A DNA stretch of 39,270 nucleotides from the NCBI GenBank assembly GCA_967755195.1, contig CBRAFJ010000001.1, positions 1-39,270 of the forward strand. Reading direction: 5' to 3'. Position numbers and translations under genes: made by a program. The notes under the pieces are model-generated. The model did not search any database. It was given only the letters and a program-made list of their open reading frames with translations, and was not told the origin of the DNA. Positions 746 to 34,085 of the stretch are shown one piece after another. Numbering within the stretch: the stretch's first letter is position 1; every line of letters starts with the position of its first letter. The stretch comes from an uncultured bacterium (GTDB lineage: Bacteria; Patescibacteriota; Saccharimonadia; Saccharimonadales; Saccharimonadaceae).

Positions 746-765
746 CGAGCTCATTGGTCAGCAGA

Positions 766-774
766 TGCTACAAT
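766..774 (+). promoter_or_regulatory. Extended -10 element TGC-TACAAT, 6 nt upstream of ATG 781 (candidate leaderless promoter)
   Basis: Plus strand reads TGCTACAAT-CAACTC-ATG. Same geometry as the divergent element at 737-745. Confidence 0.4.
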
Positions 775-780
775 CAACTC

Positions 781-1563
781 ATGCTACGCGCCTATTTAAC
801 CCAAATATCTCCCAGTACATGGCTGAAACTACTTGGTATCGTTACTATGACTATCGACCACGTCGGTATGGTGTTCTTTCCCGACCAGATAGCGTGGCGC
901 TTAGTGGGCCGCCTGGCGCTGCCGATATTTTTGTTCGGAATAGTTGAAGGCAACCGCCACACAAGCAGTCACGGTAAATACATCAGCCGACTGCTGGTCT
1001 GTGGAATCATATCTCAGCCGATATTTAGCGCCGTTGCAGGCACGACGATGTTAAACATATGTTTCAGCCTAGCCCTCGCTCTCGGCATGCTGTACTGGCT
1101 CGATAAGATAAAAGGGGATTTGGGGCGAACAATGGTAGTCATAGCGACGATGATGGTCGCTTGGTTGTTCAATGTCGACTACGGCATTTACGGTGTCTTG
1201 TTTACGCTCGTCCTATGGGCAGCTAGTCAAAAGTCGCTGTTTGCCTCAGTGAGCCGAAAAAAGCAGGCTCTAGCTATAGTACTGTTAGTGGCAGGTTTCC
1301 ATCTGTTCGTACTGGTTGAAACTCAGTTAGTTGGGCTACTGGGGTCAGCGAGATTCGGCCTGCGGCAAACTCTGGCCGTCGTCAGTGTCGCCCTTATCGC
1401 CTATGTGGCGTTTATATTGCCACCTCGTCCTCGTAAACCACGGAAACCAGCCGTAACTACAACGGATAAGATTACCCGAGGTGTGAGCAGATACGCTTTT
1501 TACGCCTACTATCCGCTACATTTGGCAATCATCGGGCTAGTCTATACCTGGCTACACAGCTAA
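781..1563 (+). CDS. traX: TraX-family polytopic membrane protein (putative acyltransferase)
   Basis: ORF 754-1563. The TTG at 754 lies upstream of the -10 box, so the in-frame ATG at 781 is preferred. Multi-pass hydrophobic protein with the N-terminal motif LKLLGIVTMTIDHVGMVFFP, which is typical of the TraX family. Confidence 0.65.
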   Translation: MLRAYLTQISPSTWLKLLGIVTMTIDHVGMVFFPDQIAWRLVGRLALPIFLFGIVEGNRHTSSHGKYISRLLVCGIISQPIFSAVAGTTMLNICFSLALALGMLYWLDKIKGDLGRTMVVIATMMVAWLFNVDYGIYGVLFTLVLWAASQKSLFASVSRKKQALAIVLLVAGFHLFVLVETQLVGLLGSARFGLRQTLAVVSVALIAYVAFILPPRPRKPRKPAVTTTDKITRGVSRYAFYAYYPLHLAIIGLVYTWLHS

Positions 1564-1859: not shown

Positions 1860-1952
1860 GGAGGAGTACCCAAGTGGCTGAAGGGGACGGTTTGCTAAAT
1901 CGTTAGTACGGAGAGATCTGTAGCGGGAGTTCGAATCTCCCCTCCTCCGCCA
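1860..1952 (+). tRNA. tRNA-Ser (anticodon GCU), CCA encoded
   Basis: GGAGGAG acceptor pairs with CTCCTCC. Anticodon stem ACGGT/ATCGT with loop TTGCTAA (GCT). Long variable arm, T arm GGGAG-TTCGAAT-CTCCC, terminal GCCA. Confidence 0.92.
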
Positions 1953-3441: not shown

Positions 3442-3873
3442 CTATCGAGCAGAGGTGCCAGCAAGTGCTTGGGTAACAAAGTTAACTGCAGCGTAAGCCA
3501 GGAAGGCAACGACTATACCAACTATCGCGTATAGTATAGTGTTTTTCGCGGCCGTGACCTGCGACTGGTCGCCACCAGAGATAACGTAACGGATACCGCC
3601 GATGATCAGCATGATGACGCTAATAGCACCAACCAAAAACAGCATAACGTTGGTCACGCGACCAAATATACTGCTTTCACCGCCGAACAGGTCAGCAGGC
3701 TGCTCGTTGCCGCGTGCACAATCAGCGCCAGAGGCGATCGACAGATTGTTCGGGTTGCACGAGGCTGCCGAAACGCTAATATCGTTTACCAGTACAGCTG
3801 CGGCGCCTAGAACAGCAACTGCCAAAAGGGCAGCCGACGCACTTTGGAAAAGTGTTTGTATACGTTTTTTCAT
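3442..3873 (-). CDS. VirB2/TrbC-like T4SS pilin paralog P6
   Basis: 143 aa. Signal peptide (..AAVLVNDISVSAA), Cys pair (SC..DC), helix 1 VTNVMLFLVGAISVIMLIIGG, loop IRYVISGGDQSQVTAAKNTILYAIVG, helix 2. Own promoter, and separated from P5 by a terminator. Confidence 0.78.
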   Translation of the reverse strand: MKKRIQTLFQSASAALLAVAVLGAAAVLVNDISVSAASCNPNNLSIASGADCARGNEQPADLFGGESSIFGRVTNVMLFLVGAISVIMLIIGGIRYVISGGDQSQVTAAKNTILYAIVGIVVAFLAYAAVNFVTQALAGTSAR

Positions 3874-3879
3874 ACCCTA

Positions 3880-3888
3880 TTTATAACA
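3880..3888 (-). promoter_or_regulatory. Extended -10 element TGT-TATAAA, 6 nt upstream of ATG 3873 (candidate leaderless promoter of P6)
   Basis: Minus strand reads TGTTATAAA-TAGGGT-ATG. Same geometry as at 737-745 and 766-774. Confidence 0.4.
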
Positions 3889-3904
3889 TAGCCACCCCTG
3901 AAAG

Positions 3905-3939
3905 GCAAAAACAAACAGCCCCGATTTCCGAGGCTGTTT
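3905..3939 (-). terminator. Intrinsic terminator after pilin P5
   Basis: On the minus strand, AAACAGCC..GGCTGTTT stem (extendable with a G-U pair) followed by GTTTTTG. Confidence 0.65.
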
Positions 3940-3961
3940 GCGTACTTTGTAGCTGGATTTT

Positions 3962-4366
3962 TTATTGGCCAGCGAGTGAGTTGGTAACAAAGCTAACCGC
4001 AGCGTAGGCTAGGAAGGCGATGATGATACCAATGATCGCGTAAAGGATGGTGTTCTTTGCGCTAGTGACCTGAGCCTGGTCACCCTGACTGATAACGTAA
4101 CGGATACCACCGATGATCAGCATGATGACTGAAACAGCACCGATCAGGAAGAGCAGGATGTTAGTAACAGTCTGGAAGATACTTCCTTCACCGAACAGGT
4201 CGTCCGGAGTACTTTCGCTGTTGCTACACTCAGCACCAGCGGCGATGCCCTGAGAAACATCGTCACAGCTAGCAGCGTATGCAGGCGTGGTTACGAATGC
4301 CAAACCAAGTACGAGAGCTGGAACTAGCAGCAGACCTTGGCTGATTTTTTTAATGATAGACTTCAT
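3962..4366 (-). CDS. VirB2/TrbC-like T4SS pilin paralog P5
   Basis: 134 aa. Signal peptide ending PAYA, Cys pair (SC..EC), core ILLFLIGAVSVIMLIIGGIRYVISQGDQAQVTSAKNTILYAIIG. SD AAGGAGAA lies 8 nt upstream of the ATG. Confidence 0.8.
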   Translation of the reverse strand: MKSIIKKISQGLLLVPALVLGLAFVTTPAYAASCDDVSQGIAAGAECSNSESTPDDLFGEGSIFQTVTNILLFLIGAVSVIMLIIGGIRYVISQGDQAQVTSAKNTILYAIIGIIIAFLAYAAVSFVTNSLAGQ

Positions 4367-4421
4367 GAAAAAAGTTCTCCTTAGTTTTTGTCGTATAAAT
4401 ACAGTTTTAGTTATAGCAGAC

Positions 4422-4817
4422 TTATCTTATCTCGCCAACAACCCAGTTAACTATCGCAAATGCCATCATGGCTACTACTAGACCGATAACAGCGTAGAGA
4501 ATAGTGTTACGCGCACTCGATACTTGAGAGGAATCGCCCTGACTAGTAACAAAACGAATGCCGCCGAGAATGATGAAAATGACCGATATAACACCGATAA
4601 TGAACAGTAGTAGGTTGATAATGTTCGTGATGGTACTAGTAAAGTCACCAGCGCGATTACCACCTTCATTACCACCGACAGAGTTGATACCCTGTTGAAC
4701 TTCGTTAGAGTTCGCCATCGCCACGGAAGACTGTAGACTGACCGTAAATGACGCCAGGCCAATGACCATCGCAAGTGCTGCTAACGAGCGAGTGATAGTT
4801 TGTATAAATCGTTTCAT
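4422..4817 (-). CDS. VirB2/TrbC-like T4SS pilin paralog P4 (Cys-free, Gly/Asn-rich mature N-terminus)
   Basis: ORF 4422-4871. Internal ATG 4817 (MKRFIQT..) has SD AAGGAGAAAGAA and avoids overlap with P3. Core LLLFIIGVISVIFIILGGIRFVTSQGDSSQVSSARNTILYAVIG. Confidence 0.78.
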   Translation of the reverse strand: MKRFIQTITRSLAALAMVIGLASFTVSLQSSVAMANSNEVQQGINSVGGNEGGNRAGDFTSTITNIINLLLFIIGVISVIFIILGGIRFVTSQGDSSQVSSARNTILYAVIGLVVAMMAFAIVNWVVGEIR

Positions 4818-4836
4818 TTCTTTCTCCTTTACCTTT

Positions 4837-5202
4837 CTAAATACGGCCAATAACCCAGTTAACGATCGCAAATGCCATCATAGCAACAACCAGGCCAACT
4901 ATAGAGTATATTACCGTGTCGCGGCCGCTATTCACCATCTTTGGATCACCGTTACTGGTAGTAAATCGGATAGCACCTACTATGATCATGATAACTGCAA
5001 CGATACCTATAACAGTCAGCAGCAAGTTAATGACGTTTCTCATCAGCGTCCAGACGCTGTCATCACGACCCTGGCAAACGGCAGTGTTGGCGCTAGCACC
5101 ACTACACGACTGCCAGATGTCGATAGCACTAGCTGGTTCAGCGACAAAAGCGGCAGTCGCTAGACTAACCACAGCTAAAAGTGATATTAGAAACTTTTTC
5201 AT
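4837..5202 (-). CDS. VirB2/TrbC-like T4SS pilin paralog P3
   Basis: 121 aa. Signal peptide ending PASA, Cys pair (SC..VC), core LLLTVIGIVAVIMIIVGAIRFTTSNGDPKMVNSGRDTVIYSIVG. SD AAGGAGGA. Confidence 0.8.
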   Translation of the reverse strand: MKKFLISLLAVVSLATAAFVAEPASAIDIWQSCSGASANTAVCQGRDDSVWTLMRNVINLLLTVIGIVAVIMIIVGAIRFTTSNGDPKMVNSGRDTVIYSIVGLVVAMMAFAIVNWVIGRI

Positions 5203-5211
5203 TGATCCTCC

Positions 5212-5877
5212 TTACCCGGCAAACCTTCCGAGTATTAACTGAACTATAGCAAATCCCATGATGACAAACACTAGACCGACTATCGAATAGATGATGGTAT
5301 TGCGAGCATTCTTAACTTTGCCTGGGTCACCTTGGCTGATGGTAAACATTACGCCGCCGATGATAACAAAGATAACCGCTACAACGCCTGCGATAGGGAA
5401 GATGATGTTGTTTAATATGGCTGCCACCTGACCCTGACCAGCAGCAACATTTGGTAGACCGAAGCCAGTTCTTCCACCGGATATAGATGTAGCTATGACG
5501 TTCACAATGGCGGTAGACGCCAGGGCAACACCAAGTCCGATGACAGCGTTTATGATAGCCTGTTTGGCTCCTTGGGTAGCAGAAGGGTCACCGCGACTCT
5601 TCATGTAGCGGAAACCGCCCCACATGATGAAACCAACCGCCGCATAGCCAACAACGTGTAGCAGCATCTCGACGACATTTAGGGCGATGACCCAGATGTC
5701 GTTCAGGTTATCTATCGTGACAGATCGACAATCGTTACTGACATTGCTGTACCAAGCGGGAAGAGTTAGGATACCCGAAGAACAAGCACGGGCCTCGACT
5801 GGTGGCACAAAAACCACTCCAACCATCACTAGGGCAGCGAAGAACGAAGCCGCAGCCTTTTTCAATATATCTAGCAT
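5212..5877 (-). CDS. Tandem double-domain VirB2/TrbC-like pilin P2
   Basis: ORF 5212-5919. ATG 5877 (MLDILKK..) has a GGGAGG SD and overlaps the upstream TAA as TAATG. Two complete pilin cores: ..GFIMWGGFRYMKSRGDPSATQGAKQAIINAVIG.. and ..IFVIIGGVMFTISQGDPGKVKNARNTIIYSIVG.. Confidence 0.78.
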   Translation of the reverse strand: MLDILKKAAASFFAALVMVGVVFVPPVEARACSSGILTLPAWYSNVSNDCRSVTIDNLNDIWVIALNVVEMLLHVVGYAAVGFIMWGGFRYMKSRGDPSATQGAKQAIINAVIGLGVALASTAIVNVIATSISGGRTGFGLPNVAAGQGQVAAILNNIIFPIAGVVAVIFVIIGGVMFTISQGDPGKVKNARNTIIYSIVGLVFVIMGFAIVQLILGRFAG

Positions 5878-6269
5878 TATAGTAATCCTCCCGGTACGAG
5901 CGCGTTCACGAGCGCCCAACCAAATATAAACAGCAACAGACCTATAACGGCATTTACTATGATAGTTATAGCTTGTTTAGTCTTAGCGGCGTCACCGTTA
6001 CTAGATATGTACATCAGTGCACCCCAGACGATACCACCAACAACTGCTATACCGACACCGATAGCCAAGAAATTAGTGATCTGCAGGACTATCGACATCG
6101 CAGGGTTACCACCTGTGGTGTTACACCTTATTATGTTAGTTTCTATGTCACTACATGACTTGTTAAAGTTCGTAGCCGAAGCAGTACTAAAAGGCAGCAG
6201 GGCAGCAGCTACGGCAACAACCAGTAGTAACGGAACAAGTTTGTAATGTATTTTTGTTATAGTCTTCAT
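5877..6269 (-). CDS. VirB2/TrbC-like T4SS pilin paralog P1 (first gene of the pilin operon)
   Basis: ORF 5877-6317. ATG 6269 (MKTITKIHYK..) gives a normal signal peptide ending SASA. Cys pair (SC..RC), core FLAIGVGIAVVGGIVWGALMYISSNGDAAKTKQAITIIVNAVIG. Confidence 0.72.
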   Translation of the reverse strand: MKTITKIHYKLVPLLLVVAVAAALLPFSTASATNFNKSCSDIETNIIRCNTTGGNPAMSIVLQITNFLAIGVGIAVVGGIVWGALMYISSNGDAAKTKQAITIIVNAVIGLLLFIFGWALVNALVPGGLL

Positions 6270-8992: not shown

Positions 8993-9925
8993 ATGGCAGT
9001 ATACAAAGTACCCCAAGACGTTGAAGCCGAAGACAAACTGATAGGTCCATTCAGTTTCCGGCAGTTCATATATCTGATAGTTGCAGCTCTCGGCATATTG
9101 CTAGCATGGGCGCTGAGCCGTCTATTTATCGGTCTCGCAATCGTTCCGCTGCCGATAATTGTGGCGTTCTTAGCCTTGGCTCTCCCGCTGCGCAAAGACC
9201 AGCCGATGGAGACCTACCTGGTGGCTCTACTGAAGTTCTATTTCAAACCTCGTAGTCGTCTATGGGATCCAGAAGGGCAGATATCCCTTGTAAACATCAC
9301 GGCAGCAAAGGCTACTGAAGGACCGCAACTGAAAGCGCTTCGTGGAGCAGCAGCATCACAACAGCTAGCCTATCTAGCCCAAGTCGTAGACACCCAGGGC
9401 TGGGCTTCTCGTGGTGCAACCCAGAACCAGAACCTATCTGACCTGATAGTTGCTGAAGCTGACCAGGCCGAAGACGTCCTAGACGCAAGCAGTGGTGTTG
9501 CTCAGGCTCTTGACCAACGTATAGCTCAGTCGGACGATGCACGACGTCAAGCGCTTCGTGAGCAAATGCAGGCAACCAACACGCCGTCACAGCCAAGTCC
9601 AGCGCAAACTATATTTGCCACCCCAGAACCGACCCCACAAGCGTCACTACCTACCGATAATGTCGCCTTTAGCCCATACCCAAGCAACATGCACCAAAGG
9701 GTGTTGTCACCTGATGGAAAATTGACTCAGGGACAGACATCGAACAAAAATGACCAGCCAGTCATAACTGAGGAAAACAAACCAGCAGAAACTCCTGGTG
9801 CTATGGCGGTCTCCCCTGATATAATGAGACTTGCAAACAATAACGACCTTTCTATTAGCGCTATCGCACGCGAAGCGCAACGGCTCAGCGAAGACGACCA
9901 AGAAGTCGTCATAACACTTCGCTAG
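8993..9925 (+). CDS. PrgI/VirB3-like small-TM protein with long Gln/Pro/Ala-rich C-terminal tail
   Basis: 310 aa. N-terminus YKVPQDVEAEDKLIGPFSFRQFIYLIVAALGILLAW plus a second TM helix resembles the PrgI (VirB3 analogue) family signature. It sits between VirB6-like and VirB4, as in monoderm T4SS loci. Confidence 0.6.
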   Translation: MAVYKVPQDVEAEDKLIGPFSFRQFIYLIVAALGILLAWALSRLFIGLAIVPLPIIVAFLALALPLRKDQPMETYLVALLKFYFKPRSRLWDPEGQISLVNITAAKATEGPQLKALRGAAASQQLAYLAQVVDTQGWASRGATQNQNLSDLIVAEADQAEDVLDASSGVAQALDQRIAQSDDARRQALREQMQATNTPSQPSPAQTIFATPEPTPQASLPTDNVAFSPYPSNMHQRVLSPDGKLTQGQTSNKNDQPVITEENKPAETPGAMAVSPDIMRLANNNDLSISAIAREAQRLSEDDQEVVITLR

Positions 9926-9969: not shown

Positions 9970-10800
9970 ATGGATCCGAATAATCAGCAACCAGCTGGAC
10001 AACCGGCCGCAATGCCGCAAGTACCGCCAACTCCTGGTGTTGCTTCTGGCCCGCAAACACCTCAGAGCGCCAAACCGCGCAACCCTAATAGCACTCAGAA
10101 CACTCTGTTAATCGCCGAGTTACGCGAAGGCATGGCCATCATGAACGATGGTAGTTTTCGTGCTGTCGTCGCCTGTCAGTCGATAAACTTTGACCTAATG
10201 AGTGCTCGCGAACGAGAAGGTGTCGAATACAGCTATCAGAACTTCCTGAACTCGCTATATTTCCCGATACAGATCTTCGTCCGCTCTCAACGCGTTGACA
10301 TAGGTCCATATCTGGAGCGTCTGGCAAAGATCCGCCGTGACCAGGACAATATGCTGCTAGGTGTACTGATGGACGACTACATGAACTTTATCGACGCTCT
10401 TTCACAGGAAACTAACATTATGGACAAAGATTTTTATGTCGTCGTGCCTTACTACCCAATAGGCGATCTGAACGCTTTTACTAGTGGCAGTAAAAGTATT
10501 TTCTCGGCAATCATGAAGCCAGACCAGCAAAAAACCGTCACTGTCGACCAAGTCGCCTACACTAAGGCAAAAGAAGAGATATCTAACCGCGTCAACGCCG
10601 TCATGAGCGGTCTTTTCCAGATGGGTATAAAGTGTCAGCAGCTGAGCACAAAACAGCTCGGTGAACTGTACTACAACATGTACAACCCGGACACAGCCGT
10701 TCGTGAACCGATGGGAGATTTCGAAAACCTGACTAGCACCTATGTCAGCAAGGGAACCGGCCAAGCACCTCAACCACATCTAGACAGGACTCAGCAATAA
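9970..10800 (+). CDS. Hypothetical protein, translationally coupled to virB4; Pro/Gln-rich N-terminus plus a globular domain reminiscent of VirB4 N-terminal domains
   Basis: 276 aa. TAA overlaps the virB4 ATG (TAATG at 10798-10802). Segment IAELREGMAIMNDGSFRAVVACQSINFDLMSAREREGVEYSYQNFLNSLYFPIQIFVRSQRVDIGPYL resembles the CagE/TrbE/VirB4 N-domain pattern. This is memory-based and unverified. Confidence 0.6.
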   Translation: MDPNNQQPAGQPAAMPQVPPTPGVASGPQTPQSAKPRNPNSTQNTLLIAELREGMAIMNDGSFRAVVACQSINFDLMSAREREGVEYSYQNFLNSLYFPIQIFVRSQRVDIGPYLERLAKIRRDQDNMLLGVLMDDYMNFIDALSQETNIMDKDFYVVVPYYPIGDLNAFTSGSKSIFSAIMKPDQQKTVTVDQVAYTKAKEEISNRVNAVMSGLFQMGIKCQQLSTKQLGELYYNMYNPDTAVREPMGDFENLTSTYVSKGTGQAPQPHLDRTQQ

Positions 10801-12707
10801 TGGCTTTTGGAAAGAAAAAACAGAGCGCTATAGACATAGCCGAAGCTCAGCGGTTACGCGAGCAACAAGAAGTCGAAACTGAATTCCTTAAAGGCATCAC
10901 GACCCTACGCGACCTGATTGCCCCTAGTAGCTTAGAGGTCCAGAGTGCTTATTTCCGTATCGGTACCAAATACGGCCGTACTCTGTACATCTACGGTTAC
11001 CCACGACAGATCTACACCGGTTGGCTCAGTAGCATCATCAACGTCGACGAAGTTATCGACGTCAGCATGTTCATCTACCCAGTTGAAAGCCAGGTAGTCC
11101 TAAACAACCTACGTAAAAAGGTTGGTCAGCTCGAGGCAAGCATCTCTATAAATGCCGAACACGGAAAAGTTCGTGACCCGGGTCTAGAGGCCGCTATACA
11201 AGACGCTGAAGAACTGCGTGACCAGCTACAAGTCGGCGCCGAGCGTTTCTTCCGTTATGGCCTATACATGACCATGTACGCTGACAGCCTAGACGAACTA
11301 GCCTTCGTCCAGCACAAGATAGAGACCATACTCGGTCAACAGATGGTTTTCAGTAAAGTTGCGTCAAGCCAGCAAGAGCAGGGGCTAAACAGTACCATCC
11401 CACAGATGGCAGACCAACTGCAGATTCGCCGCAACATGAACACCGGCGCTATTTCGACATCATTTCCATTCACCAGCGCCGATCTAACCCAGGAAAAGGG
11501 TGTGCTCTACGGTATAAACATGCACAACAACGGTCTAGTTATATTTGACCGTTTCTCACTCGAGAACGCCAACATGGTCGTCTTCGCCAAGTCTGGTGCC
11601 GGTAAGTCGTTCACCGTCAAACTAGAAGCCCTACGTAGTATGATGATGGGTTCTGACGTTATCATCATCGACCCAGAAAATGAGTACCAGCGACTAACCG
11701 AGGCTGTCGGAGGCAGTTATATACAACTCAGCCTGAACTCGGCAGTGCGCATCAACCCGTTTGACCTACCACGCGTTATCGACAGCGACGACGCCGAAGA
11801 CGCGCTGCGTGCTAACCTAGTCACCCTACACGGCCTACTACGCCTAATGCTGGGTGGCGGGCAAGTGGTCAACGGCATGGCAATCGCCGCACTCACACCG
11901 GCCGAAGAAGCTGACCTCGATCAGGCTCTTATCGACACCTACGCTCGCGCCGGTATCACTAGCGACCCTCTAACTCATAATTCATTGCCACCAACTATTG
12001 GGGATCTATACGAAACCCTATTACACATGGGTGGTAGCGGTCCGCAGCTAGCCCAACGTCTGCGCAAATACACCACTGGTACATTTGCCGGTATTTTCAG
12101 CCAGCAGAGCAACATAGACATCAACAACCCGATGGTCGTGTTTAACATTCGCGACCTAGAAGACGAACTGCGACCAGTCGCTATGTATATCGTCCTAAGT
12201 CATATCTGGAACAAAACCCGCACCGACCAGAAAAAACGTATGCTGATCGTTGACGAGGCTTGGCAGCTGATGAAATATGATGACTCGGCAAACTTCCTGT
12301 TTAGTCTTGCCAAGCGGGCCAGGAAATACTATCTTGGACTTACCACCATCACACAGGACGTTGAGGACTTTATGAGCAGCAAGATGGGTCGCGCCATCGT
12401 TGCCAACAGCTCTATGCAGCTACTGCTAAAACAAAGCTCTAGCGCCGTCGACGTTCTGGGAGAAGTCTTTAAACTAACAGAGGAAGAGCGTAAACGTCTA
12501 GCGAACTTCCCGGTCGGCCAAGGGTTATTCTTTGCCGGACAAAACCACGTCCACATACAGGTTATCGCAAGTCCAACTGAACAAAACCTGATAACAACAA
12601 ACCCTCAACAGGTAAAAGCCATGCAACAACAACAGCAACAGCCAACAAATCAGCCGCTCTATGAACAATCGCAATCAGGATACGCAGACCCGAACCAACA
12701 ATTTTAG
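10800..12707 (+). CDS. virB4: VirB4-family T4SS ATPase
   Basis: 635 aa. Gram-positive-type N-domain (LIAPSSLEVQSAYFRIGTKYGRTLYIYGYPRQIYTGWL). Walker A FAKSGAGKSFT (~11586-11612). Walker B MLIVDEAWQL (~12240-12265). Poly-Gln C-terminal tail. Confidence 0.9.
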   Translation: MAFGKKKQSAIDIAEAQRLREQQEVETEFLKGITTLRDLIAPSSLEVQSAYFRIGTKYGRTLYIYGYPRQIYTGWLSSIINVDEVIDVSMFIYPVESQVVLNNLRKKVGQLEASISINAEHGKVRDPGLEAAIQDAEELRDQLQVGAERFFRYGLYMTMYADSLDELAFVQHKIETILGQQMVFSKVASSQQEQGLNSTIPQMADQLQIRRNMNTGAISTSFPFTSADLTQEKGVLYGINMHNNGLVIFDRFSLENANMVVFAKSGAGKSFTVKLEALRSMMMGSDVIIIDPENEYQRLTEAVGGSYIQLSLNSAVRINPFDLPRVIDSDDAEDALRANLVTLHGLLRLMLGGGQVVNGMAIAALTPAEEADLDQALIDTYARAGITSDPLTHNSLPPTIGDLYETLLHMGGSGPQLAQRLRKYTTGTFAGIFSQQSNIDINNPMVVFNIRDLEDELRPVAMYIVLSHIWNKTRTDQKKRMLIVDEAWQLMKYDDSANFLFSLAKRARKYYLGLTTITQDVEDFMSSKMGRAIVANSSMQLLLKQSSSAVDVLGEVFKLTEEERKRLANFPVGQGLFFAGQNHVHIQVIASPTEQNLITTNPQQVKAMQQQQQQPTNQPLYEQSQSGYADPNQQF

Positions 12708-12717
12708 GTAGGAACCC

Positions 12718-15700
12718 ATGGCAGCCACAAATTCACCCAACCGCTACACAGACGATGATCTAAACGTCGCAGACAAAGAGTTTAATGACATCGTTAACCG
12801 CCCAGACATGCAAGCACTGGACGAGCAGGGTGACGCGGCTATACGTGATCACGACGCAAAGGCCGGTGACAGCAAGCCAGACGGCAAAAATGTCGGAGAC
12901 CTAGGCCGTGCCGAAAGTAAAGCCGCCAGTGGACCTAGAAACAACTTTTACAACCCAACCAGGAGCGGTGGAGCAACGAAGGGTTCAAGTGGTTTTGTTG
13001 GATCTTTGAAGGGCGCTTTCACCGGCAAGAACAAAAAACGTAACATCGCTCTAGGTGGTGGTATCGGTGGTGGAGCTATAGGTATAACTTTGTTGATATT
13101 TTCGCTGCTTCCGTTCAAACTACCGGGCCTTATGGAGATAATAGCTAACGAAGCTGGTCAGCGTGTCGAACAAATAACTGAACGTCGTGCCAAACAGATA
13201 ATCGCCCGGGCAATCCTAACCAGAATGGGCATAAAAGCTGGCGGTGGCTACATAGTTACGGGTAACGGACCACTCCATGACCTGTACGCATCTATGCGCA
13301 CTGCTGGGTTCGAGAAAAAGCTAGCTGCAAAAGGCATAACCATCCAAGACCGTGGCGCAAATGGTGTTCGAGTACTACTAAACGGTGAAGTACTCGGTCG
13401 AGGCGATCTGCGTACCGACCGTGAAATCATAGAAGCCCTAGACGGCAACCGCGTCACAAATCAGGTATTAAAACAGCTCGTCAAAGAAGAAGTTCCGTCT
13501 TGGCGCTGGATGAAGCGTGCTAAATTTGCCAAATGGCTACGTCTGAAATACGGCATCCCCAGATATGGCATAGAAAACAGCCAGAACGATGATGACGATG
13601 AAAAAGTCGCCGAGATGCAAAAAGGTCGTCTGAAGACATCGTATGAACGTATCACCAAAAACGTCATGGAAGTATTTGGCTGTGTCATGGGCGGTGACAG
13701 TTGCCCGGCAAACCAGAGTGCCGATCGGCCAGATGACGGACGATCGTCTGACAACGCTATCGACGAAAGCGACCTAACTGAAACCGCTGACGAACTATTA
13801 GAAGAAGAGACGTCTAACAGGAAGTTCTTTGCCAAGGTCCACGCCAAGCTGCTAGACACTGTTCTAGGAAAACTAGCCTCAAAAGCCATACCTATCATCG
13901 GTTGGATAGACCTAGCCGCCACCGTTGACCACATTATTTATGAGTTTGGCGACAACGACTACTTGGCAACTTTGCCAGCCTACTACCGCGGGCTAGGGTA
14001 CGCTCAGATATATGGTGAACGGGCGGGCTATGCAGACCAGCAAAAACTCGGCGCTCTAGATCCGGCATTCATCGCAGTTCTCGCCACTCAGGCAGACGGA
14101 GCCGAGGAATCACAGGCCTTTAACTACATAAACGGCGACTCTACCAGAGGAAAGCCTATAGACATGAAGGTCAACAACTGTGACGACTGCAAAAGCTCTA
14201 TAAATAGGTATTGGCAGTGGTACAAAGATAACATCGGCGACACCTTAGCTGGTAGCACTGGTACTATTAAATGTCCGGATGACGGTATTGGTGCGGGTGC
14301 ATGTATAACCAGTCATGAAATCATGAATGCCTACTACGAAACAATCGGTGGTGGTGGGCTCCTCGGCTGGCTAAGTGGTGTAGTCGGCGATGCTGGTAGT
14401 TGGGCGTTTCAAAGAATCATGGATCTATTACCAGGCCTACCATTCGAAGATTGGTTGGCGAACAAAATGAAACAGGCTATGAAGTTCGTTCTGGAAACAT
14501 TTGGTCTATACATCGACCCACTGGACACTGGAGCAGCCTTGTTCAACAACATGCACGCTGGCGCCACTGTAACCTTCAACTCCTTCTGTGAAGAGTCTGG
14601 TTGTCGCAAACTAACTCCAGAACAAACCGGTATGGTTAACTCGCAAATCGCCGCCGAGCGCGACGAATACCTACGCAGCCAGAGCCTAGGCTACCGACTG
14701 TTTAGCCCAGAGAATACTCGTTCTATAACTACACAGCTAGCTGTGTCACTACCGACTGCGCCACAGAACGACATAACAGGTAGTGTTAGCGCATTCGCTA
14801 GCCTAGTCGCAAACGCTCCGGCCAAACTGCTATCTACAGTCCTGCCGACAGCCTCGGCCAATACCAAATACGTTGACTTGTATGGCGTTGACCCATTTGG
14901 CGCGCTGCCAGCTGACCTAAACCAAAACATCTCTAACGAACTACTGCGCGGCGAGGAATGTCCAGATGTTGCCGAAAACCAATACAACGGCTGCAAAATA
15001 GATAAAACCGTCGCCGAAGCCATGATCTGTGAATTCACTCCAGAGATCCCAGACTGTTCAGACGAGGACGCACCAGTAGAGGGAAGTGCAGGCTTTGTTG
15101 TCGGTAGCTACAACGTACTAGACTCCGACGCGCACGAAGAGGACAGCAGGCGTATCGGTGGCTGTAGCCAGGCCGAACTAGCTAACGACCGCAACTGTAC
15201 TAGAACCAGGTCGGCCCGTCAGGCACAAATAATCAACGGAAACTCTTCAGCCGGCAACCCAGCCTTTGACGTTGTCGGAACTCAGGAAATGAGCGAGACT
15301 CAGTACAACCAGCTAAAGTCGATGCTCTCTGGATATGACGCATTTCCAACTGATGGTTCAGGTCTAGGCAACAGCCGCGATGGTAAACTTGGTATCTTCT
15401 GGAAACGATCCAAATTTACCCTAGTCGAAAGTGGCAAGGCCCCGGGGTTGAGTAACATTGCAGACAGAATCAACAACCCTTGGGTTGGTCTACGCGCTAC
15501 AAACGGTCAGATGGTCTACTTTATGTCCATCCACTACGCTCACCGAGACTGTAGTGACGGCCGCTGTGACGGCAACAAAGCACCAAACAATGTTTTCGAG
15601 GCAAATATGCGTGAGTCATCACGTCTAACTATGGACTGGGTCAGGTCAAAAGCGACGGGCAACAATATCGCTATAGTTGTCGGTGACTATAACGACCAGC

Positions 15701-16470
15701 TCAGGTGGGGATTGTCATACTGTGTCTACACGCAGGGCGGCCTAATGCAGCACGCTCACGACATGGCTCAGGGTGACAGCCCATCGGCAGGATGCTCTAG
15801 GCCTGACACTGGTGGTATCGACCACATATATGTCACTCCAAAAGAAAATGTCACCGCCACTGGATGGACCCATATGAGCAAGAGTGGCATAGTCGCCAGG
15901 GCATCAGACCACTCCCCAGTATACGCCACCGTCAACCTAGGCGGTGATGAAGAGGCAGCCGGCGGAAGTTTCCAGTGGCCTATAAAGCGAGCTGATTTCA
16001 CACACCTGTCAGGATGTTACCCACGGCAAAACGGCTCTAGCGGCAACGGTCACGCCGGTATAGACATCGATGTACCTAACACTGGCTACCATCAGCGATC
16101 AACACCGGTTTATTCAGCCACTACGGGCACAGTTACGGCCGTTGACGACGACATCGGCGGTGGTATCAGTGGTGTACAGATAAGTGCCCCTGGTGGTATG
16201 TATGTCGTTTACGAACACATGACCGGTTACAGAAGCTTCGTAAGGGTTGGTGAGCGTGTAAACGCCGGCGACCAGATAGGTTTCGCCTCGGACGTTGGCG
16301 CTACCGGTGCACACCACTTGCACTTTGGTGTAACGACACAGCGTGGCTGGTTCGGTGTAAAGTCCAACCCGACCGACCGTACAAAAAACCCTCTAGACTT
16401 CCTGCCAGCTGACCGACCACTAGCTAACGCTCTCGGCGGTACCTGTACTGCGTCAGGAGGAGCAAACTAA
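12718..16470 (+). CDS. Membrane-anchored multidomain protein: one N-terminal TM, ~650-aa Cys-rich unknown region, EEP (endonuclease/exonuclease/phosphatase) domain, C-terminal M23/LytM peptidase
   Basis: 1250 aa. TM helix IALGGGIGGGAIGITLLIFSLLPF. EEP motifs occur in order: SYNV (15106-15117), GTQE (15277-15288), GDYN (15682-15693), IDHIY (15817-15831), SDHSPV (15904-15921). M23 motifs: HAGID (16051-16065) and HHLHF (16312-16326). Confidence 0.85.
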   Translation: MAATNSPNRYTDDDLNVADKEFNDIVNRPDMQALDEQGDAAIRDHDAKAGDSKPDGKNVGDLGRAESKAASGPRNNFYNPTRSGGATKGSSGFVGSLKGAFTGKNKKRNIALGGGIGGGAIGITLLIFSLLPFKLPGLMEIIANEAGQRVEQITERRAKQIIARAILTRMGIKAGGGYIVTGNGPLHDLYASMRTAGFEKKLAAKGITIQDRGANGVRVLLNGEVLGRGDLRTDREIIEALDGNRVTNQVLKQLVKEEVPSWRWMKRAKFAKWLRLKYGIPRYGIENSQNDDDDEKVAEMQKGRLKTSYERITKNVMEVFGCVMGGDSCPANQSADRPDDGRSSDNAIDESDLTETADELLEEETSNRKFFAKVHAKLLDTVLGKLASKAIPIIGWIDLAATVDHIIYEFGDNDYLATLPAYYRGLGYAQIYGERAGYADQQKLGALDPAFIAVLATQADGAEESQAFNYINGDSTRGKPIDMKVNNCDDCKSSINRYWQWYKDNIGDTLAGSTGTIKCPDDGIGAGACITSHEIMNAYYETIGGGGLLGWLSGVVGDAGSWAFQRIMDLLPGLPFEDWLANKMKQAMKFVLETFGLYIDPLDTGAALFNNMHAGATVTFNSFCEESGCRKLTPEQTGMVNSQIAAERDEYLRSQSLGYRLFSPENTRSITTQLAVSLPTAPQNDITGSVSAFASLVANAPAKLLSTVLPTASANTKYVDLYGVDPFGALPADLNQNISNELLRGEECPDVAENQYNGCKIDKTVAEAMICEFTPEIPDCSDEDAPVEGSAGFVVGSYNVLDSDAHEEDSRRIGGCSQAELANDRNCTRTRSARQAQIINGNSSAGNPAFDVVGTQEMSETQYNQLKSMLSGYDAFPTDGSGLGNSRDGKLGIFWKRSKFTLVESGKAPGLSNIADRINNPWVGLRATNGQMVYFMSIHYAHRDCSDGRCDGNKAPNNVFEANMRESSRLTMDWVRSKATGNNIAIVVGDYNDQLRWGLSYCVYTQGGLMQHAHDMAQGDSPSAGCSRPDTGGIDHIYVTPKENVTATGWTHMSKSGIVARASDHSPVYATVNLGGDEEAAGGSFQWPIKRADFTHLSGCYPRQNGSSGNGHAGIDIDVPNTGYHQRSTPVYSATTGTVTAVDDDIGGGISGVQISAPGGMYVVYEHMTGYRSFVRVGERVNAGDQIGFASDVGATGAHHLHFGVTTQRGWFGVKSNPTDRTKNPLDFLPADRPLANALGGTCTASGGAN

Positions 16471-17672
16471 TGAATAAGTTTCGTAGTGCAATACTTGCGG
16501 TTCTAGCAGCACTTATTTCTATAGGTACGCCGATGACTGCATACGCCGATAGTTTCCAGGTACCACCAGAGATAACAAACCGCGAAAAAGCCCACTTGAA
16601 CATCGCCTTTACCGGTGGTGGCAACGACGGTAAATGTGATGAAAGTGGTACGACCTTAAGTGGCGCCAACAATAAGGAAAAAGTCTGGAATTTTTTCGTA
16701 AACAAAGGTCTCTCAGCCGAGCAAACAGCCGGCATCATGGGCAACATGGCCGTGGAGAGTGGTTTTGACCCGACTGTAGTTCAAGGTGGATCTCACTCGA
16801 CGAACCCTGCTAGTATCTCAGCCGGATGGGGAATCATCCAGTGGACACCTGGGTCCAAAATCATCGGCCTGCTAGAACGGGCGGATATATCGGGCAATCC
16901 CTCAGAACTCGCGACACAGCTAGAACTAGTTTTGTGGCACATGAACTATACTAGTCCAACTGGTGTTACTAACATGTATGCACAGTACCAGAACGTTACT
17001 GATGTTGCCGAGGCAACCAGGATGTTCGAAGACCTAATGGAAGGCGCTGGCATACCACATATCGAGCGTCGAATAGAGGAGGCGAGAACTATCCTAGCCG
17101 AGCTAGGTGGCGGTGGCGACGCCGCAGGTGCTGACACAGATCTAGGTGGATGTACTGACGAAGGTGGTATAGCTTCAGCAAATGGTTTTACATTCCCACT
17201 GCGAACCACTAAAGCAGTCATACTGGCAGGTAGTAGTCTAGGTGGAGCGAACCTAAAATGGTGCCACACCAGCCAGACAAACTGTCACCACGATTACAAA
17301 GCGGCCGACATAATGGTTGTAACAGGAACTACAGTCGTAGCAGCAAAAGCTGGTACGGTACAAAAATCAAGCCGATCTGGATCGCCAGGAAATGTCACCA
17401 TCAACAGTAGTGACGGTAAGGGTATAAACTTTTATCAGCACTTAGATGCCGGGTCCGTAACAGTTAGTGCTGGTCAAAAAGTTTCTGCCGGCCAGGTACT
17501 CGGAAAAGTTGGTGACTCTACGGATGCCTTCGGCACAGCGCCGCACCTACACTTCGACATGCTGCCGTCACAATACAAATACCGCGTATCCTGTGCCGGT
17601 GCTTCCTGTTCGGGCTACCCATTCATCGAAGTTCAGCCAGCCCTAACCGAAACATTTAAACTATTGAATTAG
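16470..17672 (+). CDS. Secreted cell-wall hydrolase: lysozyme-like (phage-tail-lysozyme type) domain plus M23 peptidase
   Basis: 400 aa. ATG overlaps the upstream TAA (TAATG). Signal peptide ending AYA. Motif KGLSAEQTAGIMGNMAVESGFDP...GWGIIQWTPGSK. C-terminal M23-like segment GTTVVAAKAGTV..YQHLD..VSAGQVLGKVGDS..APHLHFDM. Confidence 0.8.
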   Translation: MNKFRSAILAVLAALISIGTPMTAYADSFQVPPEITNREKAHLNIAFTGGGNDGKCDESGTTLSGANNKEKVWNFFVNKGLSAEQTAGIMGNMAVESGFDPTVVQGGSHSTNPASISAGWGIIQWTPGSKIIGLLERADISGNPSELATQLELVLWHMNYTSPTGVTNMYAQYQNVTDVAEATRMFEDLMEGAGIPHIERRIEEARTILAELGGGGDAAGADTDLGGCTDEGGIASANGFTFPLRTTKAVILAGSSLGGANLKWCHTSQTNCHHDYKAADIMVVTGTTVVAAKAGTVQKSSRSGSPGNVTINSSDGKGINFYQHLDAGSVTVSAGQKVSAGQVLGKVGDSTDAFGTAPHLHFDMLPSQYKYRVSCAGASCSGYPFIEVQPALTETFKLLN

Positions 17673-17681
17673 GAGGTCGAC

Positions 17682-19145
17682 ATGACTAATACAACCAAAA
17701 TTCGCCTCATAGTCATCGCTGTCGTCATCGCCATTTTGGTGCCTGTGCTGTATTATTTCGCCACACATGGTCGGCTAAATATCACCAACCCAGGCGACAA
17801 ACAGGTTTCGCTCGTTAGCATAGAGGGAAATGAAACCAGCCAAGAGCAGGCTGTATCAAACGGATCTCTGGTAACATCCGGAACCTACATAGTCCGTAAC
17901 GACCAAAATGGCACGCTACGACTGGCAAATATTTCTGTCCCTGGCTGGCTCAGATCAGCTAGTGTTACTTTCATGGACACCAAAACTGCTCAGATGGACC
18001 GAGTTGCATCTCTAACATATGACAACTTCATCCCGGCCGACAACGGATCACTGGTTAGCTTCACGAGTCTAGGCAACCGCGCACCTGGTTTTAAAGCCCA
18101 CGTCACCGACGATGCTTTTGGTGGCAAGTCAGCAGACAGCCGTTTTGCATCTGACATCCTCTCACCAACACCAACCAGTGACGGCAAACTACTAGGCATC
18201 TATCAAGCAGATATCAGCACTTATTCGTTCGTAACCGGTCAATTCCAAAAAATTGCTACAGCGCCTATAGCCGACACCGAAGGTACCGACGAAGACCTAG
18301 CACTTCAACGGTCTTCAGGCACCACTAGCAGTCGAGTAGGGTACTCTCAGGCCGAAACGGGTAAGCTAACCGTCATAAACACCGCAAACAACTCTACTGA
18401 GACCGTAAATCTTCCTGACGGACACACCAAGGTCTTTGACGTAAACGACAATGGCTGGGCAAACGTGACGTCTAAAAATCCTGAGGGCGAAGCAAGCGAA
18501 GACACCTTTGCTAGCTATCAACTAGTTGTCGGCAAGTTTGGCTCAAATGACACAAAAACTCTAGATATAGGTGCCAATCGCAACGTAGACTCAGTTGCTT
18601 TATCGCCAGACTCTAAATACGCCGGAGTCGTCAAAAACGACCAGTTGTGGGTATACGACATCGAAAACAGCAGCGTCGTTATGGTAAATCCGTTCACGGC
18701 AGCGCAGCAGATGTTCTGGAATGGCGACAAACTATATAGCCTGACGGTTGACTCTGGTGTGACTGTTTTCGACAGCACTCAAAAACAGATATCTGCCATT
18801 ACTGTCAGTAACCCTGAAGGTCTATCATTTTCTAGCATGACACCAGTAGGATCAAAGCTATACGTCACTGCATTTAACACCAAACACGCCTCTCGCTTGG
18901 CTGACGGTTTCGTGATCGACTTGGAAAAGAACAGTGACGGAATAACCAACCAATTGGCAAAGTCTCTACCGATAGAAAAACAGGGTTACAAAGCCAACTA
19001 CCTGGGTAATAAAATATACGTTCGTGTCAACGACTACGGGCTGACCGCTGACGCCGTTGCTCGTATAAAGTTGAAGGCGACAGATGACCTGAAAAAAGCC
19101 CTAGGCGACACCTATGGCAAATGTGAAGTGGTCTTCGAAGACTAA
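17682..19145 (+). CDS. N-terminally anchored extracytoplasmic protein, possibly beta-propeller-like; last gene of the T4SS-like operon
   Basis: 487 aa. AGGAGG SD overlaps the upstream stop. Single TM helix (IRLIVIAVVIAILVPVLYYFA). Ser/Thr/Asn/Gly-rich beta-type sequence with a TolB/PD40-like element (LSPDSKYAGVVKNDQLWVYD). Confidence 0.6.
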   Translation: MTNTTKIRLIVIAVVIAILVPVLYYFATHGRLNITNPGDKQVSLVSIEGNETSQEQAVSNGSLVTSGTYIVRNDQNGTLRLANISVPGWLRSASVTFMDTKTAQMDRVASLTYDNFIPADNGSLVSFTSLGNRAPGFKAHVTDDAFGGKSADSRFASDILSPTPTSDGKLLGIYQADISTYSFVTGQFQKIATAPIADTEGTDEDLALQRSSGTTSSRVGYSQAETGKLTVINTANNSTETVNLPDGHTKVFDVNDNGWANVTSKNPEGEASEDTFASYQLVVGKFGSNDTKTLDIGANRNVDSVALSPDSKYAGVVKNDQLWVYDIENSSVVMVNPFTAAQQMFWNGDKLYSLTVDSGVTVFDSTQKQISAITVSNPEGLSFSSMTPVGSKLYVTAFNTKHASRLADGFVIDLEKNSDGITNQLAKSLPIEKQGYKANYLGNKIYVRVNDYGLTADAVARIKLKATDDLKKALGDTYGKCEVVFED

Positions 19146-26356: not shown

Positions 26357-27364
26357 TTACCGGTGAAATATCCTGCGGGCGTATTTTTTATTGCTTGGTG
26401 GTAGGCCTGGGTAGATGACACTGCGTAGGTACTTCATGCTAACGCGACGTTTTTTCTGAATCCTATGACGCTCATAAAATGCGTGCGGTAGCAGGGTTAG
26501 ATGCTTCAAGAAGCCTTTGGTAGCTATGACGAACTGGCCGCGCAGAACGGCTCGTATATACATCAGAACGTAGCAGCCAAAGAACCTCCATCCAGTGCTA
26601 AAGAGCATTGGCCCTGGAACGTCTTTCCAGAAGAAAAGCGGCAGGTTTTTGAACGACTGATAAACGGTGAAGCCAGGTATTTTTCCACTAGTAGTACCGT
26701 GGTCGTGATAAGCGATAGCGGCCTTTTCGTAGTACGCCGTGTGACCTGCTAGTTGTGCACGGTAACTGATGTCGGTGTCCTCGAAATACGCGAAGAACTT
26801 TTCGTCGAACAGTCCGATGTCACGAAATAGTTTGGTTTTGTATAGCGACGCTCCAGCAGTGCCACCAAAGACGAATTCAGAGTTGCGTGCAGCGCTGACG
26901 TCTTCGTCGCGCTGACGAGGGAATGGTAGGCCCCAGCGGCTGTAGCTATCACCTGTACTTTCTATTTTTTTACCACTACTTTCTAGTAGTAGTCCGGTCG
27001 TAACACTTGCACCAGTAGTCTCCATGGCGTCCATTAGTATCTGTAGCCAATCTTTGGCAAGCACAGCGTCGTTGTTTAGTAGGACTACAAACGGGTAGTT
27101 TTCTTTTATGGCGTGTCGTATACCGACGTTGACACCACCAGAGAAACCAAGGTTTTTTTCGTGCTCGACAAAGGTTATTTTGTCGTGGTGTTTGTACTCT
27201 TCTAGTTTCTCTATCGACTCATCGTGCGAGCCATTGTCGATCAGCAGTATATGAAAGTTTTTGTAGGTCTGTTTCAGGATGGATGGTATACAGACCAAAG
27301 TCTCTTCCCAGCCGTTATAATTCAGGACAGTAAAAAGAACGTCAGGTTTGTCAGTTTTGGTCAT
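26357..27364 (-). CDS. Family 2 glycosyltransferase (GT-A)
   Basis: 335 aa. Motifs VLNYNGWEETLVCIPSILKQTYKNFHILLIDNGSHDES and VVLLNNDA. Confidence 0.85.
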   Translation of the reverse strand: MTKTDKPDVLFTVLNYNGWEETLVCIPSILKQTYKNFHILLIDNGSHDESIEKLEEYKHHDKITFVEHEKNLGFSGGVNVGIRHAIKENYPFVVLLNNDAVLAKDWLQILMDAMETTGASVTTGLLLESSGKKIESTGDSYSRWGLPFPRQRDEDVSAARNSEFVFGGTAGASLYKTKLFRDIGLFDEKFFAYFEDTDISYRAQLAGHTAYYEKAAIAYHDHGTTSGKIPGFTVYQSFKNLPLFFWKDVPGPMLFSTGWRFFGCYVLMYIRAVLRGQFVIATKGFLKHLTLLPHAFYERHRIQKKRRVSMKYLRSVIYPGLPPSNKKYARRIFHR

Positions 27365-27483
27365 ATGAACTTATTATAAAGCGAGCTAACGAGAGAACGA
27401 AATCTGTTTACATATTTCTTTCCGAGTAGCGAAGTTTTATATCGCTGATTGATATAACCTCATATATAATAGTAAGAACTTTT

Positions 27484-29451: not shown

Positions 29452-29452
29452 C

Positions 29453-33449: not shown

Positions 33450-33453
33450 GCTA

Positions 33454-33984: not shown

Positions 33985-34085
33985 ACTATGTTCTTTACTA
34001 AAATTTAACCATAAATACTATATATAAGCAACCTCAGAGGAATACTCCCCTTAATTTAGCCGCGGCGTTATATAATTAATACGCA

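Follow-up and report, generated by a model that had tools for sequence, protein, structure and literature searches.

In TM7x and other Saccharibacteria, four to six small VirB2-like proteins with signal peptides were reported in an array in 2018 (McLean et al., bioRxiv 10.1101/258137). In Southlakia epibionticum ML1, the genes SEML1_0014-0019 measure 399, 558, 312, 381, 384 and 417 nucleotides (nt), and each is essential by transposon sequencing (Tn-seq) in one host co-culture (Wang et al. 2023, PMC10633639 Table S1); Hsp20, ComFC and tRNA-Ser come after them (PMC10633639). In a survey of Patescibacteria, 383 assemblies yielded 441 arrays, each of 2-11 pilins, with an identity between paralogs of 25% on average and 54% at most; the arrays are regarded there as variable sets, for which a role in adapting to different hosts is suggested (Quinonero-Coronel et al. 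2025, PMC12102498). The subject here is an array of type IV secretion system (T4SS) pilin-like genes at positions 3442-6269, minus strand, of a 39,270-nt stretch of contig CBRAFJ010000001.1 (assembly GCA_967755195.1) from an uncultured member of the Saccharimonadaceae; "the window" denotes this whole stretch. The array corresponds, in the Saccharimonadales, to the pilin array already known, and known to be essential, in the chromosomal T4SS of Saccharibacteria, and we favour, with moderate confidence, a set of old, specialised pilin classes that co-assemble into a pilus or conduit. Model T4SS loci carry a single pilin, and for such systems the premise of the original prediction, made from the letters of the window, stands; as a criterion of novelty it does not, multi-pilin arrays being documented for the phylum. 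The novelty that it implied for the array is lost, since such arrays had been described before (bioRxiv 10.1101/258137; PMC10633639; PMC12102498).

Six consecutive open reading frames (ORFs) make up the array and encode seven homologous helical-hairpin domains (D1-D7):

5877-6269, minus strand: P1, D1-class pilin-like protein of 130 aa (ORF calls), with a predicted signal peptide (cut between ASA and T), a C-x9-C loop, a helical hairpin and a C-terminal VPGGLL
5212-5877, minus strand: P2, 221 aa with two hairpins, the D2 and D3 domains (ORF calls)
5473-5877, minus strand: N-terminal half of P2, a D2-class domain with a predicted signal peptide, a Cys loop with conserved LT(L/F)PAWY, and hairpin 1
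5212-5472, minus strand: C-terminal half of P2, a D3-class domain with hairpin 2, and the stop codon
4837-5202, minus strand: P3, D4-class pilin-like protein of 121 aa with a C-x9-C loop (ORF calls, PF18895)
4422-4817, minus strand: P4, D5-class pilin-like protein of 131 aa, Cys-less, with a Gly/Asn-rich N-terminal segment, GINSVGGNEGGN
3962-4366, minus strand: P5, terminal-class pilin-like protein of 134 aa, encoded by the last gene of a P1-P5 operon
3442-3873, minus strand: P6, terminal-class pilin-like protein of 143 aa, a candidate major subunit

The gene number, product lengths, signal peptides, paired helices with a conserved loop and seven domains agree with what had been read from the sequence before, and the six lengths recur identically in public gene calls from other, independent contigs. 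All six N-termini have a K/R-rich start, a hydrophobic stretch and then a small-residue site at -3/-1 (from P1 to P6, ASA, VEA, ASA, AMA, AYA and VSA). A mature N-terminal segment of 20-30 residues follows, and after it two long hydrophobic helices, which in all domains are separated by an invariant S-x-G-D turn; a 14-residue linker joins the two hairpins of P2. Signal peptides and helices were called from hydropathy and AxA-type sites, plus AlphaFold2 (AF2) models of two proteins. The model of P5 comprises a signal helix and a hairpin (H62-91 / H96-132), with a block-mean predicted local distance difference test (pLDDT) score of ~81-94, and that of P2 comprises two hairpins (H58-93 / H98-133 and H148-180 / H185-220; block-mean pLDDT ~70-85). 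By these calls the proteins have the two-helix pilin layout of a signal peptide, a pair of hydrophobic helices and a short charged loop. Five of the six carry a Cys pair in the N-terminal segment, the exception being the Gly/Asn-rich P4, which has none, as had been noticed.

The domains are readily recognized as relatives of one another. In a leave-one-out hidden Markov model (HMM) test, six domains retrieved the seventh at E <= 1e-14 in every case, while the domain HMM had no further match among the window's 178 ORFs of at least 60 aa, even at E <= 10. Identity between paralog domains spans 23-79%, with D6-D7 at 79%, D4-D5 at 56%, D5-D6 at 51%, D3-D4 at 43% and D1-D2 at 39%. Neighbouring domains are thus most alike, the pattern expected from serial tandem duplication.

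PF18895 (T4SS_pilin) was matched by all six proteins, five of them above its gathering cut-off of 26.6 bits (P2 69.9, P3 55.5, P4 43.7, P6 43.0 and P5 39.1 bits). P1 lies slightly under the cut-off (24.5 bits, E = 2.9e-5) and is tied to the other domains by the leave-one-out HMM (E = 1.4e-14). Matches to TrbC/VirB2 (PF04956, cut-off 27.9 bits) were sub-threshold for P3 (25.1 bits), P5 (24.7 bits) and P2 (22.6 bits), with E values of 2e-5 to 1e-4, and P3 additionally matched DUF6112 (30.2 bits). PF18895 is present in every one of 4001 homologs of P5, some of which are named 'pilin' by NCBI. The HMM check therefore supported the VirB2/TrbC-like assignment that the prediction had made. Every domain also matched NF045849 (Mbov_0395, a pilin-like protein of a mycoplasma integrative and conjugative element (ICE); E 4e-11 to 2e-4). 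Its cut-off of 40 bits was exceeded by P2 (57.8 bits) and by D3 alone (42.4 bits), the other domains scoring 21-32 bits; as the context here is not that of a mycoplasma ICE, NF045849 was treated as a related family and the array proteins were not filed as its members. These matches would place the array in a pilin family tied to monoderm systems of the mating-pair-formation class FATA (MPF-FATA).

Small membrane proteins of unrelated origin, whether holins, bacteriocin-immunity proteins or generic proteins of two helices, whose position beside T4SS genes is incidental would also show a generic hairpin fold, whose best Foldseek match here is ATP synthase subunit c (E = 3), and there are weak Pfam matches to many unrelated membrane families (E > 1e-3). 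This explanation is nevertheless very improbable, given that PF18895 is matched down to E = 2e-19, that NF045849 is matched by every domain, and that in S. epibionticum essentiality is common to the array genes and the T4SS. The linkage argues the same way: VirB4 and VirB6, whose co-occurrence had been proposed as a check, lie beside the array, and the arrangement is kept in about 40 related loci. A holin or immunity-protein reading is ruled out by the family matches together with this conserved linkage.

The array of S. epibionticum is the closest described likeness. It has PF18895, six genes and the same size pattern including the short third gene, the same divergent placement beside VirB6...PrgI...VirB4 near dnaA, and Hsp20 and ComFC downstream. 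The order ComFC-Hsp20-array-VirB6-PrgI-x-VirB4-hydrolases-recF-dnaN-dnaA is the same in both. The two loci differ in that genes 2 and 3 of the window are fused into the 221-aa four-helix protein, and in that the window has one VirB6-like gene instead of two and lacks the intervening NTF2-like gene. In addition, P6 of the window is apparently leaderless, and an extra inverted pilin copy was not found in the window.

From 539 confirmed relatives in the genome collection, 80 loci anchored on VirB4 were kept, and their ORFs were searched with the seven-domain HMM. The 80 VirB4 relatives are mostly titled Saccharibacteria, Saccharimonadales or Patescibacteria, the closest being UBA6572; metagenome-assembled genomes of Saccharibacteria / Saccharimonadales supply the great majority of VirB4 relatives. 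The array was present in 41 of the 80 loci, on the opposite strand and upstream of VirB6, and most of the others end before the array would start; the order ComFC-Hsp20-array-VirB6-PrgI-TrsD-VirB4 is common to the window and its relatives. Complete arrays hold five (n=16), six (n=7), seven (n=3) or eight (n=1) domains. Of 39 arrays, 36 open with a D1-like gene followed by a D2-like one. The third position is occupied by a short gene (~285-336 nt) whose product has no signal peptide, or is fused to gene 2; in most relatives D3 is a free-standing gene of ~96-103 aa with no exposed N-terminal segment. Two to five copies of the D4-D7 group, or terminal class, follow D3. The classes also keep their motifs: D1 a C-x9-C loop and C-terminal (V/I)PGG(L/I)F, D2 the motif C...LT(F/L)P.W(Y/H).G, the Cys-less class G(I/V)(N/D)..GGN (the counterpart of P4 in the sister locus L001 is also Cys-less and keeps the motif), and the terminal class C-x12-C followed by LFG.

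The extreme C-terminus of the D1 class (5877-5900, minus strand, in P1, plus orthologs) carries a conserved (V/I)PGG(L/I)(F/L)(N/T), which could be a processing or docking signal. Several relatives have an extra terminal-class pilin gene, inverted on the plus strand and placed past Hsp20 and ComFC, for which the non-essential 'pilin' SEML1_0024 of S. epibionticum is a match (PMC10633639):

L046, 2-352, plus strand: extra inverted pilin copy
L047, 238-669, plus strand: extra inverted pilin copy
L057, 314-742, plus strand: extra inverted pilin copy
L058, 1-357, plus strand: extra inverted pilin copy
L077, 2-232, plus strand: extra inverted pilin copy

The fusion of D2 with D3 is recurrent. An identical 221-aa fused protein is present on eight contigs from at least five samples, and about 30 clusters of fused D2-D3 proteins were found, at 27-85% identity. 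In the VirB4 tree, the fused state occurs in the window (its sister L001 being unfused), L037/L058, L057 and L077, with unfused genomes between them; it sits on at least two to three separate branches. This scatter indicates that fusion or fission happened several times. By Rosetta-stone logic, such recurrence suggests that D2 and D3 interact physically and are neighbours in the assembled structure. The fusion fixes the predicted topology of D3 to match that of D2, and it is consistent with hairpins whose termini both lie outside.

The expression signals set the last gene apart. GGAG-type Shine-Dalgarno sites precede P2-P5, P1 has only a weak AAGG, and the P1 stop and P2 start overlap as TAATG. 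Two elements lie between P5 and P6:

3911-3941, minus strand: intrinsic-terminator-like hairpin of 14 pairs, 7 of them G-C, followed by the T-run TTTTGCCTTT (terminator scan)
3880-3888, minus strand: extended -10-like element TGT-TATAAA, 6 nt upstream of the P6 ATG (3873)

The earlier reading of a P1-P5 operon, a hairpin terminator and a separate P6 promoter holds, as read from the sequence. The position of the -10-like element, 6 nt from the ATG, would imply a leaderless or near-leaderless P6 transcript. In nearly all of the 27 complete related arrays, a gap of ~40-140 nt precedes the last pilin gene, and in at least 20 of the 27 a TGnTATAAn-like motif lies upstream of it. Most relatives have a ribosome-binding site between this motif and the gene; in L001 and L004 the motif is close to the ATG as in the window, as suggested by ORF translations.

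The arrays of the survey (PMC12102498) resemble the window in having tandem PF18895/PF04956 genes near an MPF-FATA-related virB4, without a relaxase or coupling protein nearby, and in the low identity between paralogs. The window likewise has more than two tandem pilin genes beside such a virB4, which lies 4.5 kb from the array, and neither a relaxase nor a coupling protein was matched among its scanned ORFs of at least 110 aa. It departs from the survey in the D6-D7 identity of 79%, above the maximum given there. A fixed D1-D2-D3 order, a D3 without signal peptide, D2-D3 fusions and a separate promoter for the last gene are not reported in PMC12102498. What may be new is modest and comparative: the fixed class order, a D3 that lacks a signal peptide and has repeatedly fused with D2, and a terminal gene with a promoter of its own.

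In comparison with L001, identity is 93% for VirB4, 83% for DnaN, 73% for P5, 61% for PrgI, 55% for RecF, 45-63% for P1-P4 and 37% for VirB6. P6 is the best-conserved pilin, at 90% in the exposed segment and 93% in the core, while the N-terminal segment of P5 is 48% identical and its core 79%. The prediction had held that variation is concentrated in the exposed N-terminal segment; this applies between paralogs and within the P5 class, but P6 shows that it is no general rule. A rate for the pilins 6-10x that of the rest of the locus was considered and rejected as an artefact of taking the unusually conserved VirB4 (93%) as the reference: the pilins are not unusually fast, being no faster than RecF or PrgI, and VirB4 is unusually slow. 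Against the nearest relative, non-synonymous divergence (dN) was below synonymous divergence (dS) in the N-terminal segment and the core wherever dS was estimable, although synonymous sites are saturated (proportion of synonymous differences, pS, ~0.7). As a separate observation, VirB4 (10800-12707, plus strand) is 93-95% identical to the UBA6572 protein, a strikingly strong constraint on the ATPase.

One alternative is that the paralogs are alternative major pilins, each forming a homopolymeric pilus, and are kept for matching host strains or evading hosts or phages. This view has been offered for the virB2 paralogs of Bartonella and Anaplasma and suggested for Patescibacteria (PMC12102498). 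It gains from the terminal-class copy number, which differs between relatives (5-8 domains), from the extra inverted copies, non-essential in S. epibionticum and present in some relatives, and from the P5 class, in which nearly all change among close homologs falls in the exposed Cys loop and C-terminal tail and the exposed segment differs from L001 more than the core. We consider it unlikely nonetheless. Throughout the order, orthology of D1, D2 and D3 strictly follows position in the array, and their conserved exposed motifs are specific to each class; D3 has neither a signal peptide nor an exposed N-terminal segment. With only one host strain present, each of the six S. epibionticum genes is essential, the exposed segment of P6 is conserved, and the pilins evolve no faster than RecF or PrgI, with dN below dS where the saturated dS could be estimated. 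Each gene has its own start codon and a ribosome-binding site or promoter, and there are no silent cassettes. Interchangeable copies with rapid turnover, as antigenic variation would have them, were not seen in these comparisons either; turnover is confined to the copy number of the terminal class. The tandem virB2 genes of Anaplasma and Bartonella are alike in that several divergent VirB2 genes serve a non-conjugative T4SS in a host-dependent bacterium (as cited in PMC12102498). Those bacteria are diderm, MPF-T-bearing intracellular pathogens of animals in which the variation is attributed to immune evasion, whereas the window's classes keep their order and motifs, in a bacterium whose host is itself bacterial.

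Of the two functional guesses made in the prediction, a heteropolymer of major and minor pilins is accordingly favoured over a diversification repertoire. The specialised, co-assembling subunits that we prefer are supported by the age of the paralog classes, their fixed order and their class-specific exposed motifs, and by the individual essentiality of all six genes in S. epibionticum in one host co-culture. On this reading, P1-P5 would form one operon with translational coupling, transcribed away from virB6, and P6 would be transcribed from its own promoter. The products would be exported by Sec and cleaved by signal peptidase I at the AxA sites. By analogy with the topology of VirB2/TraA, the mature domains would then be membrane hairpins with N-out/C-out orientation and a cytoplasmic, net-positive S-x-G-D loop. 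The VirB4 ATPase and a VirB6/PrgI/TrsD platform would pull out the hairpins and stack these into a tube, either a pilus or a conduit, by analogy with Gram-negative pili and with PrgF on PrgH in pCF10, and the M23 and lysozyme hydrolases of the neighbouring operon may help it to cross the wall. The paralogs would not be interchangeable; comparative genomics points to ancient subunit classes that co-assemble. P6 and the terminal class are candidates for the bulk or major subunit forming the shaft, since P6 has its own promoter-like motif and the highest conservation of the pilins with L001. D1, D2 and D3 may be low-copy initiating, tip or base subunits, with D2 and D3 as physical neighbours, and the machine would support epibiotic growth on the host bacterium.

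Several results weigh against this reading. Four genuine plasmid VirB2/TrbC proteins gave no significant hhalign alignment (E = 0.17, 17 columns). A search of the sequences of solved structures with a 37-sequence profile returned no pilin, the best match being glycophorin (E = 0.31). Foldseek searches of the PDB with the AF2 models of P5 and P2 gave generic helical matches alone (E >= 3 in one search and E >= 0.1 in the other), such as ATP synthase c and F-BAR domains; a helical hairpin is too plain a fold for this comparison to be telling. In no Patescibacterium has a pilus made of these proteins been observed (PMC12857230), and polar effects could account for part of the essentiality that Tn-seq assigns to the upstream genes. 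The assignment of major and minor subunits draws on promoter and conservation arguments. The variable number of terminal-class copies in arrays of 5-8 domains fits some diversification, as does the contrast in close P5-class homologs between 53 of 67 invariant positions in the core and 7 of 30 in the exposed segment.

A second alternative places no pilus at the end of the pathway: the hairpins would remain within the cytoplasmic membrane or directly above it and, with VirB6, be stoichiometric components of the translocation channel. A pilus-independent role of this sort is kept by VirB2 in 'uncoupling' mutants and in pilus-less systems. A T4SS pilus has not been imaged in Saccharibacteria or in Gram-positive bacteria, and a fixed set of classes with a D2-D3 fusion fits a complex of defined stoichiometry at least as well as a filament. 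However, the secreted, variable Cys-loop segments suggest exposure at the surface, the separately promoted and highly conserved terminal gene suggests a bulk building block, and in pCF10, labelling of PrgF at cysteines speaks for its extrusion from the membrane. We regard the channel as improbable, to about the same degree as the set of alternative homopolymeric pili.

The preferred reading of specialised subunits can be taken further, at greater risk. Possibly, though we would put this forward only tentatively, the array builds a heteromeric tube of at least four to five ancient, non-interchangeable classes in a defined arrangement, in which D2 and D3 are direct neighbours and are for that reason fused repeatedly, the signal-peptide-less D3 is the ancestral monoderm core pilin of the PrgF type, and the separately promoted terminal class is the shaft. 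We know of no characterised T4SS pilus that is a heteromeric tube of several pilin classes; those known are homopolymers, some with a VirB5 tip.

The Gram-negative pilins VirB2, TrbC and TraA share with the array a signal peptide that is cleaved (predicted so in the array), a two-helix core of ~75 residues with a short charged loop, and VirB3, VirB4 and VirB6 genes alongside. They are usually encoded by one gene per system, whereas the window has six, and the mature N-terminal segments of the window are longer and carry the Cys pair. The window also lacks the VirB5 tip protein, outer-membrane core complex, VirB11 and cyclisation protease of Gram-negative T4SSs.

Among monoderms, PrgF of pCF10 is a small two-helix VirB2-like protein that is essential for conjugation; it has been modelled as a tube on a pentamer of the VirB6 protein PrgH and probed by cysteine labelling, and most conjugative plasmids of Gram-positive bacteria encode PrgF-like proteins (ter Beek et al. 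2025, bioRxiv 10.64898/2025.12.18.695078). The PrgF and NF045849 systems share with the window a monoderm, MPF-FATA-type machinery, and PrgF has two helices, lies beside VirB6 and, like D3, lacks a signal peptide. Unlike the window, these elements are conjugative, have a relaxase and a coupling protein and carry the pilin in single copy. Alignments of the array to PrgF were weak and conflicted in register (hhalign E = 0.012 and 0.005, BLASTP E = 6e-4), and they probably reflect transmembrane composition. The loop of P3, IRFTTSNGDPKMVNSG (4930-4980, minus strand), resembles that of PrgF, IRSGMSNDDPRTLDKG (L090:11546-11770), with an apparent match of the form IR..SN.DP that is no more than a lead; the statistics are weak, and other alignments run in a different register. 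In PrgF, residues D37, D38 and R40 line the lumen of the modelled pilus (bioRxiv 10.64898/2025.12.18.695078).

Few machines are known to be essential to Saccharibacteria in their epibiotic life, and the T4SS is among them; its proposed roles are effector delivery and the uptake of nutrients or DNA (PMC11665869). The pilin array is its most unusual part. The window holds no new kind of system; the comparative pattern sharpens the question of whether such arrays make a heteropolymer of specialised subunits or swappable coats, and the constant gene order, the repeated joining of D2 to D3 and the terminal gene under its own promoter single out the informative subunits.

Further T4SS genes lie in a divergent plus-strand operon that begins 119 nt from P1:

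6388-8985, plus strand: extended VirB6/TrbL-like polytopic membrane protein, 865 aa (PF04610, E = 7e-4; precomputed PF19590 TrbL_3)
8993-9925, plus strand: PrgI / VirB3-like protein (PF12666, 55.4 bits)
9970-10800, plus strand: TrsD/TraC-like protein, 276 aa (NF041427, E = 1.2e-5; precomputed PF26593 TraC-like)
10800-12707, plus strand: VirB4-type ATPase (PF19044, 103.8 bits; AAA_10, DUF87)
12718-16470, plus strand: cell-wall hydrolase, 1250 aa, with endonuclease/exonuclease/phosphatase (EEP) and M23 domains
16470-17672, plus strand: cell-wall hydrolase, 400 aa, with phage-tail-lysozyme and M23 domains
17682-19145, plus strand: 487-aa ORF, last of the operon, with no family match

The VirB6-like protein is the presumed assembly platform, and the two hydrolases would jointly take a VirB1-like role. 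The 1250-aa protein combines its EEP domain (residues 836-1065) with an M23 peptidase; a recognisable homolog was found in 14 of the 80 loci, and the S. epibionticum counterpart differs in its hydrolase domain. The protein may act on the host as a variable enzyme. The 487-aa ORF has a homolog in one of the 80 loci, and a separate comparison with L002 gave 33%.

Beyond the operon lie recF, dnaN and dnaA and then rnpA, yidC and jag, marking the replication origin region. The other flank of the array holds Hsp20, ComFC, two tRNA-Ser genes and a TraX-family gene. The tRNA-Ser genes (1615-1704 and 1860-1952, plus strand; anticodons TGA and GCT) are flanked by TraX and ComFC, and a single tRNA-Ser occupies the corresponding position in S. 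epibionticum (PMC10633639). The TraX-family gene (754-1563, plus strand; PF05857, 126 bits) lies 1.9 kb past the array end. The TraX family includes the pilin N-acetylase of the F plasmid. A role as dedicated pilin acetylase was rejected here because the gene was found in none of the 80 related loci, most of which stop short, and is not at the matching position in S. epibionticum; its linkage to the array looks incidental. Farther along the window, at 27000-35000, G+C drops from ~0.50 to 0.36-0.43 over a polysaccharide-export and glycosyltransferase (GT) cluster with an ABC-2 permease, a Wzt-type ATPase, a pyruvyl transferase and several GT2/GT4 genes, which may be a horizontally acquired surface-glycan island.

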